Below are positions 3,827 to 64,000 of a DNA stretch of 64,000 nt, piece after piece (position 1 is the first letter of the stretch; each line of letters opens with the position of its first letter). The position numbers and the translations under genes are program-made. Under the pieces are notes generated by a model. The model saw only the letters and a program-made list of their open reading frames with translations. It had not been told where the DNA came from and made no database searches. The stretch comes from Candidatus Omnitrophota bacterium (lineage in GTDB: Bacteria; Omnitrophota; Gorgyraeia; Duberdicusellales; 4484-171): positions 21,935 to 85,934 of the forward strand of contig JBAWWL010000002.1 in the NCBI GenBank assembly GCA_037146775.1, read 5' to 3'.

Positions 3827-4285
3827 ATGAAGGAAATAGTCGGTACATACGCAGGCAAAGGCAAAAGGATCGCTATCGTTATTTCGCGTTTTAATGAGTT
3901 TGTCGGTAAAGAGCTGCTTGCCGGTTGTGTTGATACGCTTAAGAAATCAGCGGTGGAGGAAAAAGACATTACTGTTGTCTGGGCGCCGGGATCTTTTGAA
4001 ATACCTCAGATAATAGGTAAGCTCGACACGAAGAAATTTGATGCCGTAATAGCCTTGGGTGCCCTTATCCGGGGCGACACGCCTCATTTTGATTATATCG
4101 CGGCGGAAGTTTCAAAAGGGGTGGCCCGGCTTTCGCTTGATAAAAATATTCCAATGATTTTCGGCGTTATTACCACCGACACGTTAGAACAGGCGATCGA
4201 GCGCTCGGGTACAAAACAAGGCAACAAAGGTAGAGATGCGGCCTTGGCAGCCTTAGAAATGGCAACTCTTTATCAGCAAATATAA
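3827..4285 (+). CDS. ribH: 6,7-dimethyl-8-ribityllumazine synthase
   Basis: ATG at 3827 after GAGGAGGG RBS; the ORF-track start at 3788 is upstream read-through; GKGKRIAIVISRFNEFV is the lumazine synthase signature. Confidence 0.88.
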   Translation: MKEIVGTYAGKGKRIAIVISRFNEFVGKELLAGCVDTLKKSAVEEKDITVVWAPGSFEIPQIIGKLDTKKFDAVIALGALIRGDTPHFDYIAAEVSKGVARLSLDKNIPMIFGVITTDTLEQAIERSGTKQGNKGRDAALAALEMATLYQQI

Positions 4286-4360
4286 AAAATTAAAAATAAA
4301 AAATTGGGGTTTGCGGATATCCTTATATTAATTTTTTGATATTTAATATTTAATTTTTTA

Positions 4361-38246: not shown

Positions 38247-39716
38247 GTGATTGTAAAAAACAAAATAGAAGAATTTCAAAGTTACCTAGAAGATACCTCT
38301 AATCTAAAAGGTACAGCTTCTATTCTGTATTTGCCCCAGGAGCAAGGAGAAATAGCCCCTCTCCTCCAACAGTGCGCGGAGAAACATATTCCTTTTACGG
38401 TTTCCGCGGGAAGAACCGGCACAGCCGGCGGTTGCGTGCCGACTGACGGTGCGGTTATTTCTTTGGAAAATTTAAAAAAAATTATCGATATTAACGTCAA
38501 AGATTGCACGGTGCACGTACAGTCCGGCGTTAGTTTTGAAGAGTTGGAAAAAGAAACAAGAAAATACGGCCTTACCTTACGCGCGTCTCCTACTGAAGGG
38601 TTGGCGCATATTGCGGGGGCAGTTTCTACCGCCGCCAGCGGCGTGCGTGGCTTTGGTTACGGTTCGATTCGCGGGTATGTGCAGGAAATTGAGCTGGTTT
38701 TAACGAGCGGATCAGTGTTATGTATTAAACGCGCGGATATATACGCTCGGGACGGGTATTTTGACTTTTTATATAAAGGAAAACATTTTACTTTTAAGCT
38801 CCCGGGTTATTCAATGCCTCGCGTTAAATCTCAGGCAGGCTATTTTGTAAATGATGCCATGGATTTGATTGATTTATTTATCGGTAGCGAAGGAACGCTA
38901 GGCATTATTACCTCCTGCCGTTTACGTCTCCAGAAGCTACCCGAGCGTATTTTTGACGGGCTGATATTTTTTGATAAGGAAGAAGAGGCATTTCAGTTTG
39001 TCAATCTTGTGAAGAAATTAAAGGATGAAAAGTTGCTTGTGCCGGCTTCACTTGAGTTCTTTGACCGACATGCTCTGTCCTTTTTGCGGCCGGACTATTC
39101 TTTCATTCCGCAATCCGAAGCGGCAATTTATTTTGAACAAGAAGTAGAGAGGGGAGAGGATTTTGATTCTTTACTCGATCGCTGGGCGGTTCTGATAGGA
39201 AAAAGCGGTGCATTGTCCGAAGCGAGTATTTTGGCGGATACCCCCTTAGAGCGCGCAAGGGTTTTTTCTTTTCGTCACCGCCTTCCACAGGCTATCAATG
39301 AATTTCTGCGTGCGCATAAACAGGTCAAGACCGCAACCGATATAGCTGTTCCCTGGGAGCATTTTTCCGAAATGTACTCTTTTTATAAAGAGAAAGGATT
39401 GGAGTCCGGCCTTGATTATGTGAATTTCGGCCACATCGGCGAGTCTCATTTACATTTTAACTTTCTTCCTAAGGACGATATTCAAGGTGTGAAAGCGCGG
39501 ACATATCTTCAGCTTTTTTGTAAAAAAGCTGTTTCGCTGGGAGGAACGGTTTCGGCAGAACACGGTATCGGTAAAATAAAAAAACCATATCTAAATATCA
39601 TGTATACCGACCACCAACTTATCGAAATGGCACGTGTTAAGAAATATTTTGATCCGTCTTGGCTGCTTGGTCTGGACACGATTTTTTCTAAAGATATTTT
39701 AGGAAAACAGCCCTAA
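38247..39716 (+). CDS. FAD-binding oxidoreductase (GlcD/FAD-linked oxidase family)
   Basis: GTG start; PCMH-type FAD-binding N-terminal domain (PFTVSAGRTGTAGG), C-terminal FAD-oxidase domain. Confidence 0.7.
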   Translation: MIVKNKIEEFQSYLEDTSNLKGTASILYLPQEQGEIAPLLQQCAEKHIPFTVSAGRTGTAGGCVPTDGAVISLENLKKIIDINVKDCTVHVQSGVSFEELEKETRKYGLTLRASPTEGLAHIAGAVSTAASGVRGFGYGSIRGYVQEIELVLTSGSVLCIKRADIYARDGYFDFLYKGKHFTFKLPGYSMPRVKSQAGYFVNDAMDLIDLFIGSEGTLGIITSCRLRLQKLPERIFDGLIFFDKEEEAFQFVNLVKKLKDEKLLVPASLEFFDRHALSFLRPDYSFIPQSEAAIYFEQEVERGEDFDSLLDRWAVLIGKSGALSEASILADTPLERARVFSFRHRLPQAINEFLRAHKQVKTATDIAVPWEHFSEMYSFYKEKGLESGLDYVNFGHIGESHLHFNFLPKDDIQGVKARTYLQLFCKKAVSLGGTVSAEHGIGKIKKPYLNIMYTDHQLIEMARVKKYFDPSWLLGLDTIFSKDILGKQP

Positions 39717-40702
39717 GGTTTAGTTTGTGGGCTTGTAGCTATAGGAATACGGCAAAGTTTTTGTATGGCAGAGAATATTTCTAATTTTGTTTTTGCGTGA
39801 CAAGCCTGCTCCCGTAACGGTTTTGTTCCAGGGATACCCTTGGTATACCAATTAAAGAACTTGCGGAATAAAATCAATCCTGTTCGCTCGCCGTAAAAGT
39901 CTAAACATAATTGAAGGTGGATGTGCATTGTTTTTGTTCTTTCGTCCATGCCCGGCCCGTGATGCAGTGTGGTATGTCTAAAGTATGCTTTCATTTCTTC
40001 AAATATCCAAGGATTACCCAGGGCACCGCGGGCGATAACTACTGCGTCGCAACCTGTTTCTTCAAACATTTTTTTCACCGCTTCGCCTGAAAAGATATTT
40101 CCGCTCGCGATAACAGGAATGTGAAGCGCCTTCTTTACTTCTCCGATAGTTTTGTAGTCAATATCTCCGCTATATCCTTGTATTCTTGTCCGACCATGGA
40201 TAAAGAGTCCTTGGATGCCGGCATCTTGAGCATATTGAGCCACTTCTTTGGCATTCACGGATTGTTTATCCCATCCGGAGCGTATTTTAACGGTAATGGG
40301 AATGCTGGTGTTTTTTACCATTATTGCAAGTAATTCCTGCAGTTTTTTAGGCTGTTTAAGCAGACATGCTCCTTTTCCTTTAGAGACGACTTTTTTTGTA
40401 GGACAGGCAGCATTAAGATCAATGAGGTTAAACTCGTATTTTTGTAATATTTCCAATGCTTTAATGATGAATTCCGGGTCATTACCCAGAAGCTGAATGC
40501 CTAGCGGTTTGTCGGTTTCGTTTGTTGAAAGCTTGCGTTGTAGTTTTTTGCTCTTGTAATATAGGGAGTGTACGTCAATCATTTCCGTGAAAGCTAATTC
40601 GCAGCCAAACGAACGGTTTATGGTCCGGAAAGGCAAATCGCTTATTCCAGATAAGGGTGCGAGGATAAATGGTGAATTGAGGCTGAGGCTGCCTATCTGT
40701 AA
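39713..40702 (-). CDS. dus: tRNA-dihydrouridine synthase
   Basis: MLQIGSLSLNSPFILAPLSGISDLPFR Dus N-terminus; the ORF-track N-terminal 40 aa are upstream read-through. Confidence 0.8.
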   Translation of the reverse strand, partial: LQIGSLSLNSPFILAPLSGISDLPFRTINRSFGCELAFTEMIDVHSLYYKSKKLQRKLSTNETDKPLGIQLLGNDPEFIIKALEILQKYEFNLIDLNAACPTKKVVSKGKGACLLKQPKKLQELLAIMVKNTSIPITVKIRSGWDKQSVNAKEVAQYAQDAGIQGLFIHGRTRIQGYSGDIDYKTIGEVKKALHIPVIASGNIFSGEAVKKMFEETGCDAVVIARGALGNPWIFEEMKAYFRHTTLHHGPGMDERTKTMHIHLQLCLDFYGERTGLILFRKFFNWYTKGIPGTKPLREQACHAKTKLEIFSAIQKLCRIPIATSPQTKP

Positions 40703-40857
40703 CATATAACTATAACCATATAAAGTTTTTGTTACTTTCCAGACGAGAAAGCAGTGGGTTTGTGAATGTATAAAAATCACAAAAGACACACGAACGAATT
40801 CATATGATACCGGTAGAAACATTCTATTGCAAGATTTAATTTTTATCAGTATAATCT

Positions 40858-41400
40858 ATGTCTATGAAAGAAGAATTGCGTTTGTTATTGGAAAAAGAAG
40901 CTCTTTTTAAGGGCGAAGTGCGGCTTTCCTCCGGTAAAATAAGTAATTTTTACATAGATGTAAGAAGGGTAAGTTTAAGCTCTCAGGGTATTTATTTGAT
41001 TTCACACTTATTCTGGCAGCTTATAAAAGACGATCACATAGCCGCCATGGGCGGGCCGACCTTGGGGGCTGATCCTCTTGTCGCCGGTGTGTGTATGCTT
41101 GCGCACGAAAATAAGCGTTCACTCGGAGGGTTTCTTATTCGTAAAACTCCCAAAGAGCATGGAAGACAGCAATTGTTGGAAGGGAAAGAGCTTGCACCCG
41201 GCGCACGGGTAGTGGTAGTGGATGATGTGGCGACAAGCGGCGCTTCTTTAGTGAAAGCTGTCGAAATATTACAAAACGAACGGATACAGGTGGTAAAAAC
41301 GCTTGTGGTAGTCGATAGAGAAGAAGGAGCCGCGCAAAATCTAGCCAAACTTAACTGTCCGCTTGTTTCACTTTTTACTAAGAGCGATTTCTCCAAATAA
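40858..41400 (+). CDS. pyrE: Orotate phosphoribosyltransferase
   Basis: FKGEVRLSSGKISNFYID and VVVVDDVATSGAS PRPP-binding motif. Confidence 0.85.
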   Translation: MSMKEELRLLLEKEALFKGEVRLSSGKISNFYIDVRRVSLSSQGIYLISHLFWQLIKDDHIAAMGGPTLGADPLVAGVCMLAHENKRSLGGFLIRKTPKEHGRQQLLEGKELAPGARVVVVDDVATSGASLVKAVEILQNERIQVVKTLVVVDREEGAAQNLAKLNCPLVSLFTKSDFSK

Positions 41401-41405
41401 TTTGA

Positions 41406-42278
41406 ATGATTACACAGATGATACGCAGATTCGACCGATGGCAGAAGTCAGAGGTCAGAAGCCAGAGGTTAGAAGCCAGGGCTAATATTTCTGTCCTCTG
41501 TCATCTGTCGTCTGTTCTTTGTCCTCTGTTTTTTAGTCTATTTTTAGGCGGGTGTGTCACCACCGAATACAACGTCGGGACGCACAAAGAAGATATCATG
41601 TTCTATTCTACCGAAAAAGAGGTGGCAATGGGGCAGAATATCCACAAAGAAGTTGTAAAACAATTCAAGCTATCGGGGAACCCCAGTGACATCGAACGGA
41701 TAAATACCATCGGTAATAAAATAGCCGGAGTTTGTGACCGTAAAGAAATACATTATTATTTCTATGTTGTTGGCGCTAATGATAAAGGCGAGGGAGATGA
41801 AAAAAATGCCTTTAGCGTTCCCGGAGGCTACATTTATGTTTTTAAAGCTTTGCTTGATGATTTAACCGATGACGAGCTCGCCTTTGTTCTTGCTCACGAA
41901 ATCGGCCATGTGGTATCGAGGCATGTCGTCAAGAAACTGCAGGCAGCAATGGGTTATGATCTTATTTTGATTGCTTCGGCGGGCGCGGCCCGCGATCCAG
42001 CCTTTACTCAAGGGCTTTCATATGCGCTTGCCCAAATTATGGCAGCATATTCAAGGGAGGACGAGTATAATGCCGATGAGTTGGCGATAAAATATACTCA
42101 AACCTGTCAATACGATTCTAAGTCAGGCATAGAGGTGTTGGAAAAGCTTTACAAGGAAAACAAAAAAGTTATTCGGCCGCTTTCTTACTTTAGAACTCAC
42201 CCTTACACCGCTCAACGAATTGCCCACATGAGAGAAACCCTGCATCTTCCCTTGACCGCCGCCGACTATATCAACTAA
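41406..42278 (+). CDS. M48-family zinc metallopeptidase, probable lipoprotein (start codon uncertain)
   Basis: HEIGHVVSRH HExxH motif; LFLGGC lipobox; the N-terminal ~45 codons are encoded by the two heptamer repeat arrays. Confidence 0.65.
   Translation: MITQMIRRFDRWQKSEVRSQRLEARANISVLCHLSSVLCPLFFSLFLGGCVTTEYNVGTHKEDIMFYSTEKEVAMGQNIHKEVVKQFKLSGNPSDIERINTIGNKIAGVCDRKEIHYYFYVVGANDKGEGDEKNAFSVPGGYIYVFKALLDDLTDDELAFVLAHEIGHVVSRHVVKKLQAAMGYDLILIASAGAARDPAFTQGLSYALAQIMAAYSREDEYNADELAIKYTQTCQYDSKSGIEVLEKLYKENKKVIRPLSYFRTHPYTAQRIAHMRETLHLPLTAADYIN
41442..41531. repeat. Two mirrored heptanucleotide tandem arrays: (CAGARGY)x6 - AATATT - (TCTGTYN)x6
   Basis: Purine-rich array 41442-41483, central palindrome AATATT 41484-41489, pyrimidine-rich array 41490-41531; counted directly. 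Confidence 0.8.
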
Positions 42279-42355
42279 TGGCGGATTAAATAATTCAGAT
42301 AGTAACGAATTAAAGGATTAATGTATTGATGCTAATTTTTGTAATATAGCCGCGT

Positions 42356-43309
42356 CTAAGGCATGAAAGATTTTAGTATCATCAAGAAGGATAAGTTAAA
42401 GGTGTTGTGTATAATGTGTAGTGTGATGGGGGCGGAAATATGCTGTGTTTTTTCGTATACATAACAGAGTACGATACTGAGAAAAAGTAACGGAAGTATG
42501 TCTTGCGGTGTTCTGTGCAACATGGAAAAAATAACCGATGAAAGGATAGCGGAAAGCCAAAAACCATATCGTTTTCTGGCGCATTTATAGATAATAGCTC
42601 GAAAAAATAATTCTTCAGCCACCGGCCCAAACAGAATTACCTGTAAAACAATAAGAGCAATAATTTTAGTATTTTTAAAAGCAAGGAAAAGTCCGATAAC
42701 AGGATTTTGGACTATTTTCATGCCGCTTTTCTCGGTAAGAAAGGTATTGAATAGAAGTAGCCCCGTGATAAGCGGCAATATGGTTATATAGACTTTAACC
42801 AGATAGTCGAAATCATTTTTGGCTATGGAGAAGTCTAAGAATTTCCCGGGGAGAAAGCAGCGTATTATGCCTATGATGCCTAATTCTAGGGCCAGGTTAA
42901 GCGTGAGAGCCAATTCAAGCCTGTTTATATTCAGTTGGAAGATAGCCGCACTTATCTCTATTACGTAAGTGCAAAAAACAAATAAAGTGACCAAGAAAAT
43001 AAGCTTTCCGGTTGTTTCTTGATCAAGCGGAAACGATTTCTGTATTGTTTCGAATTGTAGGGATGCTTTTTTCCGAAACAGCTTGATGGAGTATAATATT
43101 AAATGAACAGTTCCCGTCAGTAGCAGAAATATAAACAGAGTAACGAAAAAAACGAATGTTTGAGTATGCGGGTTATTAGTCAGTCTTTGTTTATCAAAGG
43201 TAGGCTCGTAAGCGTTTTTCGTGGAAAATTTCGAAGGAATAGAGTTTTGTAACAGCACTATAGCGATGATGCAGACGAGAGTTAATAGAATATATTTATT
43301 TTTTTTCAC
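42356..43309 (-). CDS. CPBP-family intramembrane metalloprotease (CAAX protease/Abi family)
   Basis: EELFFRAIIY...FSMLH motifs in a multi-TM protein. Confidence 0.7.
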   Translation of the reverse strand: MKKNKYILLTLVCIIAIVLLQNSIPSKFSTKNAYEPTFDKQRLTNNPHTQTFVFFVTLFIFLLLTGTVHLILYSIKLFRKKASLQFETIQKSFPLDQETTGKLIFLVTLFVFCTYVIEISAAIFQLNINRLELALTLNLALELGIIGIIRCFLPGKFLDFSIAKNDFDYLVKVYITILPLITGLLLFNTFLTEKSGMKIVQNPVIGLFLAFKNTKIIALIVLQVILFGPVAEELFFRAIIYKCARKRYGFWLSAILSSVIFSMLHRTPQDILPLLFLSIVLCYVYEKTQHISAPITLHIIHNTFNLSFLMILKSFMP

Positions 43310-44140: not shown

Positions 44141-44387
44141 AAAAGTGCGCGGGGGGGGACTTGAAACAAATCTCGCCGGAGGCGAGCTTCTTAGTATTTG
44201 TTCCAAGACCACTCTCGCATAAAATAAACTATAGTTGGCGCGCAAAACTTTTAGAACAAGCAAAAGTGCGCGGGGGGGGACTTGAAACAAATCTCGCCGG
44301 AGGCGAGCTTCTTAGTATTTGTTCCAAGACCACTCTCGCATAAAATAAACTATAGTTGGCGCGCAAAACTTTTAGAACAAGCAAAAG
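44141..44387. repeat. Two 121-bp tandem units plus a partial third copy, each beginning with the last 25 nt of tRNA-Leu (T-loop through discriminator + CTTTT)
   Basis: AAAAGTGCGCGGGGGGGGACTTGAA at 44141, 44262 and 44383 (the last is the tRNA itself); the intervening 96 bp are identical and contain the hairpin CTCGCCGGAGGCGAG. Confidence 0.9.
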
Positions 44388-44469
44388 TGCGCGGGGGGGG
44401 ACTTGAACCCCCATGGAATTACCCATACGCTTCTGAGACGTATGCGTCTGCCAATTTCGCCACCCGCGC
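44388..44469 (-). tRNA. tRNA-Leu (anticodon CAG)
   Basis: Manual fold: acceptor GCGCGGG/CCCGCGC, 3-bp D stem, anticodon loop CUCAGAA, 13-nt variable arm, T-arm GGGGG-TTCAAGT-CCCCC; 82 nt. Confidence 0.8.
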
Positions 44470-61089: not shown

Positions 61090-61776
61090 ATGAGTATATT
61101 CAACAGATTTCTATTAGGTCTTGTCCTGGTGCTAACGTTAACTAGCCAGACATTATATGCCCAGCAAGGTGACGCTGACACAAAGAAACTCGCCGAGATC
61201 CGAGCTAAGGCCGAGAAAGGCGATGCCAAAGCCCAGTGGGAATTGGGTAAAGCATTCTCTAACGGCGAGTTTGGGCTGGAGAAGGATTGGCAGGAAGCGG
61301 TGAAGTGGATTCGTAAGGCCGCCGAACAGAATGACGCCGTTGCTCAAGATAGTCTGGGTTTTTGCTACAGATATGGCCAAGGCGTGGCGCAGGATACGGT
61401 GGAAGCGGTAAAGTGGTTTCGTAAGGCCGCCGAACAGAATGACGCTATGTCTCAATTCAACCTAGGTTGCTGTTATTACTATGGCACTGGTGTGGCGAAG
61501 GATGATGTGGAGGCGGTAAAGTGGTTTCGTAAGGCCGCCGAACAGAATTCTGCCCTAGCTCAAAGTAATCTGGGTGAATGCTACTTCAGGGGCATAGGTG
61601 TGGCGAAGGATATGAAGGAGGCCTACAGGTGGTTCTTGTTGGCCGCGGCACAAGGTGATGAAGATGCAAAGGGCCGCGTGAGGCATCTTGAAAAGAAACT
61701 GAAAAAGGATCAAATTGCAGAAGTAAAGAAACAAGTGGCTGAATGGACCGAACAGCACAAGAAAGCCACTAACTAA
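61090..61776 (+). CDS. Secreted Sel1-repeat (TPR-like) protein
   Basis: Signal peptide; four ~36-aa Sel1 repeats (EAVKWFRKAAEQNDA...LG.CY..G.GVA.D); 108-bp nucleotide repeats nearly identical. Confidence 0.75.
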   Translation: MSIFNRFLLGLVLVLTLTSQTLYAQQGDADTKKLAEIRAKAEKGDAKAQWELGKAFSNGEFGLEKDWQEAVKWIRKAAEQNDAVAQDSLGFCYRYGQGVAQDTVEAVKWFRKAAEQNDAMSQFNLGCCYYYGTGVAKDDVEAVKWFRKAAEQNSALAQSNLGECYFRGIGVAKDMKEAYRWFLLAAAQGDEDAKGRVRHLEKKLKKDQIAEVKKQVAEWTEQHKKATN

Positions 61777-63049: not shown

Positions 63050-64000
63050 ATGTCGAGTCTTCTATGTAAACTCGGATTGCACGCGTGGGGAAAGTGTTCA
63101 GACCAACCAGGAAGGCACGACACTAAGCAGTGTGGCAGTGGTTGTTCTTGTAGCTGTATTCGAGAAGGCTGTGGGGCAACTCGCCATAAGTGGGGGCAGG
63201 GGTTTAGGCGCTGCGAATGCCTTCGCTTTCCTTGCCAGGCACGTAACCATATGTGGAATGGTTGTCAGTGTATCAACCCCGGGTGTGGCGGAAAACGCGA
63301 CGCGCAGCACGTCTGGGATGGATGCAAGTGTGTAACCTGTGGTAAAGAACGAGACGAAGGCCACAAATGGGATGGGTGCAAATGCTCAACTTGCGGTAAG
63401 GAGCGGGATGAAAGTCACCAATGGAAAGATTGCAAGTGCTCGATATGCAGGAAGACCCGCGAGCAAGAACACAACTGGGATGGATGTAGATGCGCAGTGT
63501 GTTTCAAGATACGTAATCAAGAGCATTCGTGGACTAATGGAAGATGCTCAAGGTGCGGGAAGTTCAACTTCTCGTCGCTTGAAGAGGCCCTTCCTTTTAT
63601 GAAGCAATACGAGAGCATGGAAATCTTCAAGAGGCCAGGGCTGATCTCTGCCATTACTGACCTCCACGCCTCCTGCGATGAAAATGCGAAGCGGCTGGTT
63701 ATCCAGGGGCTGCTTGACATCTTGCGCGTTCTTCCGTCACCGCCACTTGACGACGCCACCTTTTCGACCATCTGTGCTGCAATTGCAGCATTCGGATGCA
63801 TCGGCGATGATTCCTCAGAGGTTCTAGATTGTCTCGATTCGTTTGTCACACGAGATCCTAACTATCGTGCTATCGAGATTCTTGGTGAGCTCGCGGAAAA
63901 GTCAGATGCCGCATTGTCGCGACTCCTAGCTTGGCATCGCCGCGTTGATAAGGCACAGGTGGCTGGATACTCACTGATAAATATTAGACGTGAATCGATG
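63050..64000 (+). CDS. Cysteine-rich tandem-repeat protein (seven ~18-aa H-x-W-x-G-C-x-C-x2-C units) with helical C-terminal region; runs off the window end
   Basis: Frame-2 ORF from ATG 63050 (RBS AAAGGAG 5 nt upstream), open to position 64000 with no stop; absent from the ORF track because it has no stop in the window. Confidence 0.65.
   Translation, partial: MSSLLCKLGLHAWGKCSDQPGRHDTKQCGSGCSCSCIREGCGATRHKWGQGFRRCECLRFPCQARNHMWNGCQCINPGCGGKRDAQHVWDGCKCVTCGKERDEGHKWDGCKCSTCGKERDESHQWKDCKCSICRKTREQEHNWDGCRCAVCFKIRNQEHSWTNGRCSRCGKFNFSSLEEALPFMKQYESMEIFKRPGLISAITDLHASCDENAKRLVIQGLLDILRVLPSPPLDDATFSTICAAIAAFGCIGDDSSEVLDCLDSFVTRDPNYRAIEILGELAEKSDAALSRLLAWHRRVDKAQVAGYSLINIRRESM

Follow-up and report, generated by a model that had tools for sequence, protein, structure and literature searches.

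The 64,000-nucleotide stretch of DNA examined here (the window) belongs to contig JBAWWL010000002.1 of a Candidatus Omnitrophota bacterium and contains, at 41406-42278 of the + strand, a gene for a LoiP/BepA-like M48 metalloprotease of 290 aa that is predicted to be a lipoprotein. Codons 13-42 of this open reading frame (ORF) hold two tandem arrays of period 7, one rich in purines and the other rich in pyrimidines, that mirror each other across a short centre, and their unit length is not divisible by three. The question raised by this locus is what such arrays do inside a coding region, namely whether they act as a genetic switch, as an RNA hairpin, as a binding site, as a mobile element or as protein-coding sequence. 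Judged from sequence comparison, this mirrored pair of degenerate heptamer arrays probably arose by slippage and turned into coding sequence that would form most of the signal peptide of the M48 lipoprotein.

Both arrays were read directly. The purine array (41442-41483, + strand) consists of the six heptamers CAGAAGT, CAGAGGT, CAGAAGC, CAGAGGT, TAGAAGC, and CAGGGCT. The centre AATATT (41484-41489, + strand) lies between both arrays, codes for Asn-Ile and is the loop of the mirrored pair. The pyrimidine array (41490-41531, + strand) consists of the six heptamers TCTGTCC, TCTGTCA, TCTGTCG, TCTGTTC, TTTGTCC, and TCTGTTT. An earlier interpretation made from the letters without database searches (the sequence-only reading) had described this region as six CAGARGY units and six TCTGTYN units around AATATT. 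The two arrays and their positions stand, and the consensus units hold in part: CAGARGY is exact in 4/6 purine units (units 5 and 6 are degenerate) and TCTGTYN is fitted by 5/6 pyrimidine units. Tandem Repeats Finder reported both arrays at period 7 with 5.4 and 5.7 copies and 70% and 78% matches, and no adjacent units within the arrays are identical (Hamming distances 1-5). The partial complementarity of the two arrays that had been claimed was also recovered, with 26 Watson-Crick and 3 G-U pairs out of 39 in the best register. A second register shifted by 7 nt is nearly as good, and an inverted repeat of 27 nt (78%) was detected across the arms.

The arrays are confined to this locus. Two-unit patterns had 9 and 11 matches in the 64-kb window against 2.4 and 2.2 expected from shuffles, and the matches with 0 or 1 mismatch all lie at the M48 start. 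No second copy of the mirrored array was found in the window. The only other period-7 arrays that Tandem Repeats Finder reported there are an AT-rich pair at 4285-4358, which folds no better than shuffles.

The reading frame and its conservation indicate that the arrays are most likely translated. The translation of the M48 ORF (Pfam Peptidase_M48, E 4.7e-31) begins MITQMIRRFDRWQKSEVRSQRLEARANISVLCHLSSVLCPLFFSLFLGGC. The first part (41406-41441, + strand) comprises the start codon and the conserved leader MITQMIRRFDRW, with a second ATG at 41418 and older CAGAT-type motifs inside. The purine array then encodes QKSEVRSQRLEARA, which is part of the n-region, and the pyrimidine array encodes SVLCHLSSVLCPLF, which belongs to the h-region. 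The h-region ends together with the lipobox L-G-G-C at 41532-41555 (+ strand), where the Cys codon occupies 41553-41555. Read in three frames, a heptamer yields a repeat of seven residues, here QKSEVRS/QRLEARA in the purine arm and SVLCHLS/SVLCPLF in the pyrimidine arm, followed by FSLF-LGGC. The translation of the arrays that the sequence-only reading had quoted is correct against this ORF.

A lipoprotein signal peptide of the Sec/signal peptidase II type was assigned by a rule-based reading that looks for a charged n-region, a hydrophobic h-region and a lipobox Cys. By this rule the protein has an n-region (MITQMIRRFDRWQKSEVRSQRLEARAN, net charge about +4), an h-region (ISVLCHLSSVLCPLFFSLF) and a lipobox ending in Cys, of which G49 and C50 are nearly invariant in an alignment of 37 orthologues. 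Basic residues able to form the n-region occur only in or ahead of the purine arm, and the window has no in-frame ATG, GTG or TTG between 41421 (after codon 5) and the lipobox Cys. The leader MITQIxxRLxRL is kept in orthologues of 60-87% identity. Its codons vary synonymously (ACA/ACG, AGA/CGA, TTA/TTG) and its Arg and Leu positions are retained, a pattern that suggests selection at the peptide level. Members of the clade with the gene order pyrE-M48 have a gene that opens with ATGATT right after pyrE and a peptide that follows MITQIxxRLxRL-NIS-(I/V)C(H/Y)L. The suggestion that the arrays code for the n-region and the h-region is therefore supported, both by this leader and by the frame kept in array-bearing orthologues. 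The motif IRRFDRW could be read as a twin-arginine (Tat) signal, but orthologues do not conserve the RR and the reading was rejected for that reason. The NCBIfam matches of the protein to BepA and LoiP are both under the curated cut-offs. A total of 1619 homologues were identified, and those bearing a source name are from Candidatus Omnitrophota/Omnitrophica.

The orthologue set consisted of 80 loci from Omnitrophota metagenome-assembled genomes (MAGs) and three loci obtained via exact protein look-ups. With the exception of L053, whose start codon lies downstream of its arrays, all array-bearing M48 loci have one frame that begins at a start codon ahead of the arrays and stays open as far as the lipobox Cys. 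No out-of-frame case occurs among the approximately 25 orthologous loci with arrays. Generic mirrored arrays, which are described below, are open in a given strand and frame in just 37% of cases, so that the 8/8 open mirrored cases at M48 have a chance probability of ~3e-4.

The arrays themselves differ between relatives. The flanks that enclose 6+6 units in the window enclose 3+3 units in L083 (82% identical protein). In L084 (87% identical) arrays are missing and the signal peptide is a plain one of 14 residues (MQKALLCFLWLLGGC). L085 (68%) has an outer CAGAxxx/TCTGTCA pair with an inner GAAGGGx/CCTTTCx pair nested in its loop, all in frame, and a presequence of 72 residues. L003 and L007 have an additional third array, (GGTCTKY)x5. 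The centre position is occupied by [AG]ATATT in 7/9 close orthologues, and Y-type heptamer arrays are found in the h-region of about 20 further orthologues. Many orthologues have other heptad peptides that correspond to other units read in three frames, namely ICYLLSA from (ATCTGCT)n, LSFILYP from (TTATCCT)n, FLVFGFW from (TTTTTGG)n, and WNLEFGI from (TGGAATT)n. Within 90%-identity clusters the mature protein is nearly constant and the signal peptides are widely different. The comparison of orthologous M48 genes that the sequence-only reading had proposed as a check thus gave two answers: every orthologue with arrays maintains the frame, and the arrays range from 3+3 units to a nested pair to none.

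Three further observations concern the N-termini of these proteins. In L004, L008 (60-100 nt upstream of the Cys codon) and P0011, a G+C-rich segment of ~35 nt (e.g. CCCTTCGACACGGCCTTCGGCCAGGCTCAGGAC) that encodes ...RHGLRPGSGLP... interrupts the pyrimidine array and is absent from members of the same 90% clusters. In distant M48 orthologues (42-47%; L061, L062, L064, L065, L067-L071, L073-L082), a Maf-like gene, noted ~600 nt upstream of the lipobox Cys, is in frame with M48 and no stop intervenes. The joint ORF has ~450 codons and contains the M48 signal peptide internally (e.g. MLKKIGVNVFSVSCCLFVFLLSGC); it either encodes a fusion protein or has an internal start. The database entries P0019, P0022-P0024, P0028, P0040, P0046, P0132, and P0134 start at an internal Met (MFYSTEKE..., 225-227 aa). 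Ahead of the annotated Met, the DNA of L004 (P0023) and L007 (P0134) continues as an open frame that encodes a signal peptide and a lipobox, and gene callers appear to avoid the repeat-coded N-terminus of M48 proteins. Such a repeat-coded N-terminus would explain the disagreeing M48 gene calls, whose products range over 225-318 aa.

The sequence-only reading had also pointed out that the gain or loss of one unit would shift the frame and had compared this architecture with that of slipped-strand phase-variable genes. The effect on the frame was borne out by simulation, where altering either arm by one or two units truncated the protein by a stop at codon 20-52. Compensating changes in both arms failed as well: every combination tried truncated the protein, since the fifth purine unit and the centre contain out-of-frame stops. 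A three-unit change per arm was the only change that kept the gene open. This rule fits the 3+3 units of L083 against the 6+6 units of the window, the only pair with alignable unit boundaries, in which each arm differs by exactly three units.

A slipped-strand contingency locus, in which single-heptamer gain or loss toggles M48 as in neuO or opa, would account for the 7-nt units in the 5' coding region, for the stops at codon 20-52 and for a copy number that varies between lineages. The repeats are also enriched at the M48 gene specifically, which is the usual signature of contingency loci. We nevertheless consider such a switch improbable. Among three testable features of phase-variable loci, the non-triplet tandem repeat in the 5' coding region is present here and two are lacking. 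The first is a near-perfect tract, as the units are degenerate, with matches of 70-78% and adjacent units that are never identical. The second is copy variation with OFF alleles, none of which was seen among about 25 array-bearing loci. The window allele is also identical at the DNA level in GCA_964613555.1 and in the Logan assembly of SRR12676968, and an NCBI protein encoded on a third contig shows no difference up to the end of the array-coded part. One subclade has five units fixed in five MAGs, the window and L083 differ by three units per arm, and the product resembles a housekeeping envelope protease and not a surface antigen. The phase-switch proposal is therefore not supported by the assembled sequences, although switching at low frequency may occur. 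A flank-anchored variable-gap pattern had 0 matches among the metagenome contigs of JGI, where the lineage is absent, and this search is uninformative on variation.

Known switches show the same likeness and difference. The neuO gene of E. coli K1 (CUS-3 prophage) has 3 to 53 copies of the heptanucleotide AAGACTC, is OFF in 65.6% of 64 genomes and is read in three frames as a heptad peptide, with the full-length protein made only at multiple-of-three units (PMC13001214). The window shares with it the tandem 7-nt unit in the 5' coding region and the heptad peptide read in three frames. However, the neuO repeats are perfect and part of the mature enzyme, whereas those of the window are degenerate, mirrored and located in a signal peptide, and no OFF allele has been seen. 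The opa genes of Neisseria have a perfect tract of the pentamer CTCTT in the leader peptide that switches at about 1e-3 per generation (PMC3960869). In both cases a pyrimidine-rich non-triplet repeat codes for the hydrophobic leader of an exported protein, but the opa tract is a perfect pentamer with measured switching and has no mirrored purine arm.

The long imperfect hairpin in the 5' region of the mRNA that had been suggested is predicted by folding. Sense RNA of 41430-41545 formed a core at 41433-41516 with -39.3 kcal/mol (z-score -4.33). The extended hairpin of the sense transcript (41414-41529, + strand) has -51.9 kcal/mol in RNAfold (z -3.95) and none of 200 shuffles was as stable. It begins 6 nt past the first AUG and covers the second AUG. 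The antisense strand of 41430-41545 has -28.5 kcal/mol (z -2.83). The strand asymmetry was considered as a sign of selection on RNA and dropped: energies favour the sense strand, but the z-scores are alike on both strands, so the energy advantage is compositional. It was also considered whether avoidance of TGA forces the U-U mismatch in every unit; this was rejected, as stop-free and fully complementary pairs such as CAGAGGA/TCCTCTG exist.

The gene ahead of M48 is a pyrE-like gene of the phosphoribosyltransferase family (40858-41400, + strand; Pfam Pribosyltran, E 4.6e-11) with a promoter-like site at 40827-40855. The gene order pyrE-M48 is common to L001, L002, L083, L085 and most closer orthologous loci. 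In the window the stop codon of the pyrE-like gene is 5 nt upstream of the M48 start codon and no Shine-Dalgarno-like sequence is visible ahead of the M48 AUG; we therefore infer that M48 is coupled to pyrE. The modelled hairpin may limit independent initiation at M48 and tie its translation to ribosomes arriving from pyrE.

It follows to ask whether the hairpin is itself the selected feature, that is, a cis-regulatory RNA for M48 translation or for the stability of the pyrE-M48 transcript, with the coding of the signal peptide secondary. Its stability, its position next to the first AUG and over the second, the missing Shine-Dalgarno-like sequence and the near pyrE stop all agree with such a role. 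Structures with z < -3 at the M48 start recur in 8/84 orthologous loci against 0/84 control windows, L014 and the inner pair of L085 have unrelated units whose arms are still complementary, and generic mirrored arrays are packed tightly between cistrons. However, L083, the nearest relative with arrays, has only a weak hairpin (-24.4 kcal/mol, z -1.2), L084 has none, and about 20 orthologues have the pyrimidine array without a partner arm. The hairpin is thus recurrent but not a conserved requirement. The similar z-scores of both strands also speak against selection on RNA, as does the lack of a known family or terminator: Rfam 15 gave only tRNAs across the window at the gathering threshold and only chance matches to miRNA hairpins (E 6-8) in 41300-41650, and no terminator-like site was found by a consensus scan of the + strand at 40700-42500. 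A T run (41529-41534) begins 13 nt past the core stem. On balance, a hairpin selected ahead of the peptide is unlikely.

The M48 start is also a place where such arrays accumulate. Among the tandem repeats in 1.18 Mb of Omnitrophota loci, period 7 is the most frequent, with 107 arrays of at least 3 copies against 4 in shuffles; periods 8 and 6 follow with 31 and 23. Of these 107 arrays, 29 lie no more than 260 nt upstream of an M48 Cys codon; this region accounts for 1.9% of the sequence. A period-7 array is present in the signal-peptide region of 23/81 M48 loci and of 2/343 other signal-peptide-like ORFs (odds ratio 68, p 4e-16), and one of the latter two probably carries its array in the 5' untranslated region. 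The remaining arrays are mostly intergenic, often occur as purine/pyrimidine pairs and sit just ahead of start codons or behind RNA genes. No literature linking Omnitrophota with such heptamer repeats was found in the searches made. Among long simple repeats, heptanucleotides are reportedly the most abundant in many bacteria and often lie shortly ahead of start codons, and TAACTGA repeats are found upstream of start codons in Beggiatoaceae (PMC4679880). The Omnitrophota loci resemble these repeats and the cyanobacterial short tandemly repeated repetitive (STRR) sequences in the dominance of period 7, and differ from them in that those are direct repeats without a mirrored partner and are mostly untranslated.

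Two other placements were noted in Omnitrophota loci. Arrays of the ACGAACG/ACGCACG type lie directly ahead of the same orthologous start codon in L053 (6382-6466) and L050 (6982-7012). The gene concerned is an FAD-binding oxidase whose counterpart in the window (38247-39716) has no array, and its start may be a second gene-associated array site. The heptamer pairs AAGGAAA ... CTTTAAC of L027 (5900-5987) and L013 (5612-5642) lie right behind the apparent 3' end of the same non-coding RNA gene (...CCACCACGAGGGCA) in these two MAGs.

The mirrored architecture extends well beyond Omnitrophota. The pattern (CAGANNN)x3 - 6 to 36 nt - (NNNTCTG)x3 matched at least 120 metagenome stretches and 42 stretches on viral contigs, and the figures that follow are from 80 metagenome loci examined out of the former. 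Their GC content ranges over 33-72%, so many taxa are involved. The generic arrays have a median of 5+5 units and a loop of 7.5 nt. They are intergenic between same-strand (25), convergent (8) or divergent (6) genes, and 17 are in heuristic ORFs; a single weak M48-like match was found near them. The lengths of both arms correlate weakly (Spearman 0.26), so symmetric growth of the arms is not a rule. In L092 (602-883), L134 (146-308) and L166 (1049-1160), purine arms of ~40, 19 and 12 units face pyrimidine arms of 4-5 units, which indicates that arms can expand independently.

The window copy belongs by architecture to this widespread and mostly intergenic class of mirrored CAGA/TCTG arrays. 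The class has at least three CAGA-core heptamers followed within ~40 nt by at least three TCTG-core heptamers, and the window has 6+6 around a 6-nt centre. Its in-gene location is unusual, as the class is mostly intergenic and multi-copy and the window array lies inside a coding sequence and is single in 64 kb. Published sites with this architecture are eight pairs of sites of five tandem heptanucleotides (class 3, consensus MTYCTGA) in Geobacter metallireducens, described in 2009, at which an unknown global regulator was proposed to bind (PMC2700814). These sites are opposite-strand pairs like ours, their unit is the cyclically permuted complement of the window purine unit (CAGAAGT / ACTTCTG), and the arrays from metagenomes and viral contigs fall into the same category. 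The Geobacter copies and most generic copies differ in being intergenic and multi-copy, whereas the window copy is single, in a gene and open in frame, and its pyrimidine unit is TCTGTCN rather than TCTGACY.

The Geobacter proposal could be carried over to the window, with a DNA- or RNA-binding protein (a global regulator, IHF/HU) recognising CAGA/TCTG at 7-nt spacing. The CAGA/TCTG core is indeed the conserved part of the unit here and in the closest orthologues, and arrays built on this core make up a large class that spans phyla and includes multi-copy families restricted to single genomes. We regard a binding array as very unlikely at this site, where other lineages carry unrelated units (ATCTGCT, AATTCCA, TTATCCT and others). 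The array is also single in 64 kb, and a spacing of 7 bp does not match the DNA helical repeat.

Repetitive extragenic palindromic (REP) sequences and bacterial interspersed mosaic elements (BIMEs) are hairpin-forming extragenic palindromes that are not tandem heptamers and have a dedicated transposase, the REP-associated tyrosine transposase (RAYT). The generic arrays resemble them as short hairpin repeats between cistrons in all orientations with genome-specific families, and differ from them in their tandem-heptamer build, as REPs have the RAYT transposase and no such build. Some contigs contain at least 4 copies with one genome-specific unit, e.g. (CAGAATG)4...(CATTCTG)3, and by analogy these multi-copy heptamer families behave like a REP family. 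The IMG/VR contigs L234 (5418-10001) and L243 (139-13876) each have four near-identical (CAGAATG)4-loop-(CATTCTG)3 copies within 16-21 kb.

The M48 array could accordingly be a mobile palindromic element, similar to REPs or to miniature inverted-repeat transposable elements (MITEs), that was inserted at the 5' end of the gene. Besides the behaviour of the generic arrays as genome-specific multi-copy palindromic families, the unrelated array families that occupy the same site across lineages and the nested pair of L085 would agree with an insertion. However, the flanks of the window and L083 are identical and only whole units differ between them, which argues for stepwise growth. With neither an evident target-site duplication nor terminal repeats at the locus and no second copy in the 64-kb window, an inserted element is highly improbable.

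The preferred reading, in which the arrays are slippage-derived and code for the signal peptide, would proceed as follows. An older palindromic motif, CAGAT...AATATT...ATCTG, would mark where the M48 gene begins in a clade of Omnitrophota, and the arrays would be a lineage-specific expansion of it. Units would be gained and lost by replication slippage, and because the frame tolerates gains or losses only in steps of three units (21 nt) per arm, only those would survive. The CAGARGY arm would supply the polar and positively charged n-region, and its mirror, the TCTGTYN arm, would supply the hydrophobic h-region that leads into LGGC. In the standard lipoprotein pathway signal peptidase II would remove the array-coded part, which would explain the tolerance of such sequence here. 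The hairpin near the start codon would make M48 translation depend on ribosomes from pyrE.

Several points weigh against this reading. The evidence for ongoing slippage is indirect, and the subclade of L023, L024, L026, L027, and L035 has five units at a fixed position in 5/5 MAGs. Units within an array of this subclade are only slightly more alike (0.77) than units at the same position in its other MAGs (0.71); concerted evolution in this pyrimidine-array-only subclade is a weak signal and was not used as evidence of active slippage. Common descent of one old array, rather than repeated gains, may plausibly account for the arrays at the M48 site. The z-score of about -4 could mean that the hairpin is under selection in its own right. 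The arms of the window are not precise inverted copies of each other, and the shared origin with the generic class relies on architecture and the CAGA core only. Finally, an n-region of 27 residues is unusually long.

A broader proposal joins these elements. The arrays at the M48 start would then be a conserved, gene-specific tuning device of Omnitrophota that works by three-unit steps, rare single-unit OFF states and the hairpin, sets the translation and export of the protease and is tied to pyrE, and the mirrored CAGA/TCTG arrays would be a cross-phylum class of functional cis-elements. This proposal is speculative and we consider it unlikely.

If the preferred reading is correct, the M48 gene illustrates clearly how a palindromic simple repeat can turn into coding sequence in nature, with the charged part taken from the purine arm and the hydrophobic part from its mirror. 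This suggests a simple route by which export signals could arise and change length quickly. The heptanucleotide dominance in Omnitrophota, concentrated at the signal peptide of one gene, has apparently been little described, and so have the mirrored CAGA/TCTG arrays that are common between genes in many uncultured bacteria and viral contigs.

The window also contains tandem repeats with longer units. At 44141-44407 there are 2.2 copies of a 121-nt unit with 100% identity; a tRNA-Leu gene occupies 44387-44469 (minus strand), and each unit opens with a copy of the 3' end of tRNA-Leu(CAG) of about 24 nt (GTGCGCGGGGGGGGACTTGAA). This repeat could be the stacked attachment-site remnants of a tRNA-integrating element or an assembly artefact. 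Imperfect tandem repeats of 108 nt (61293-61612, 3 copies, 74% matches) and 54 nt (63314-63424, 2.1 copies, 75% matches) have periods that are multiples of three and so may be protein repeat modules.

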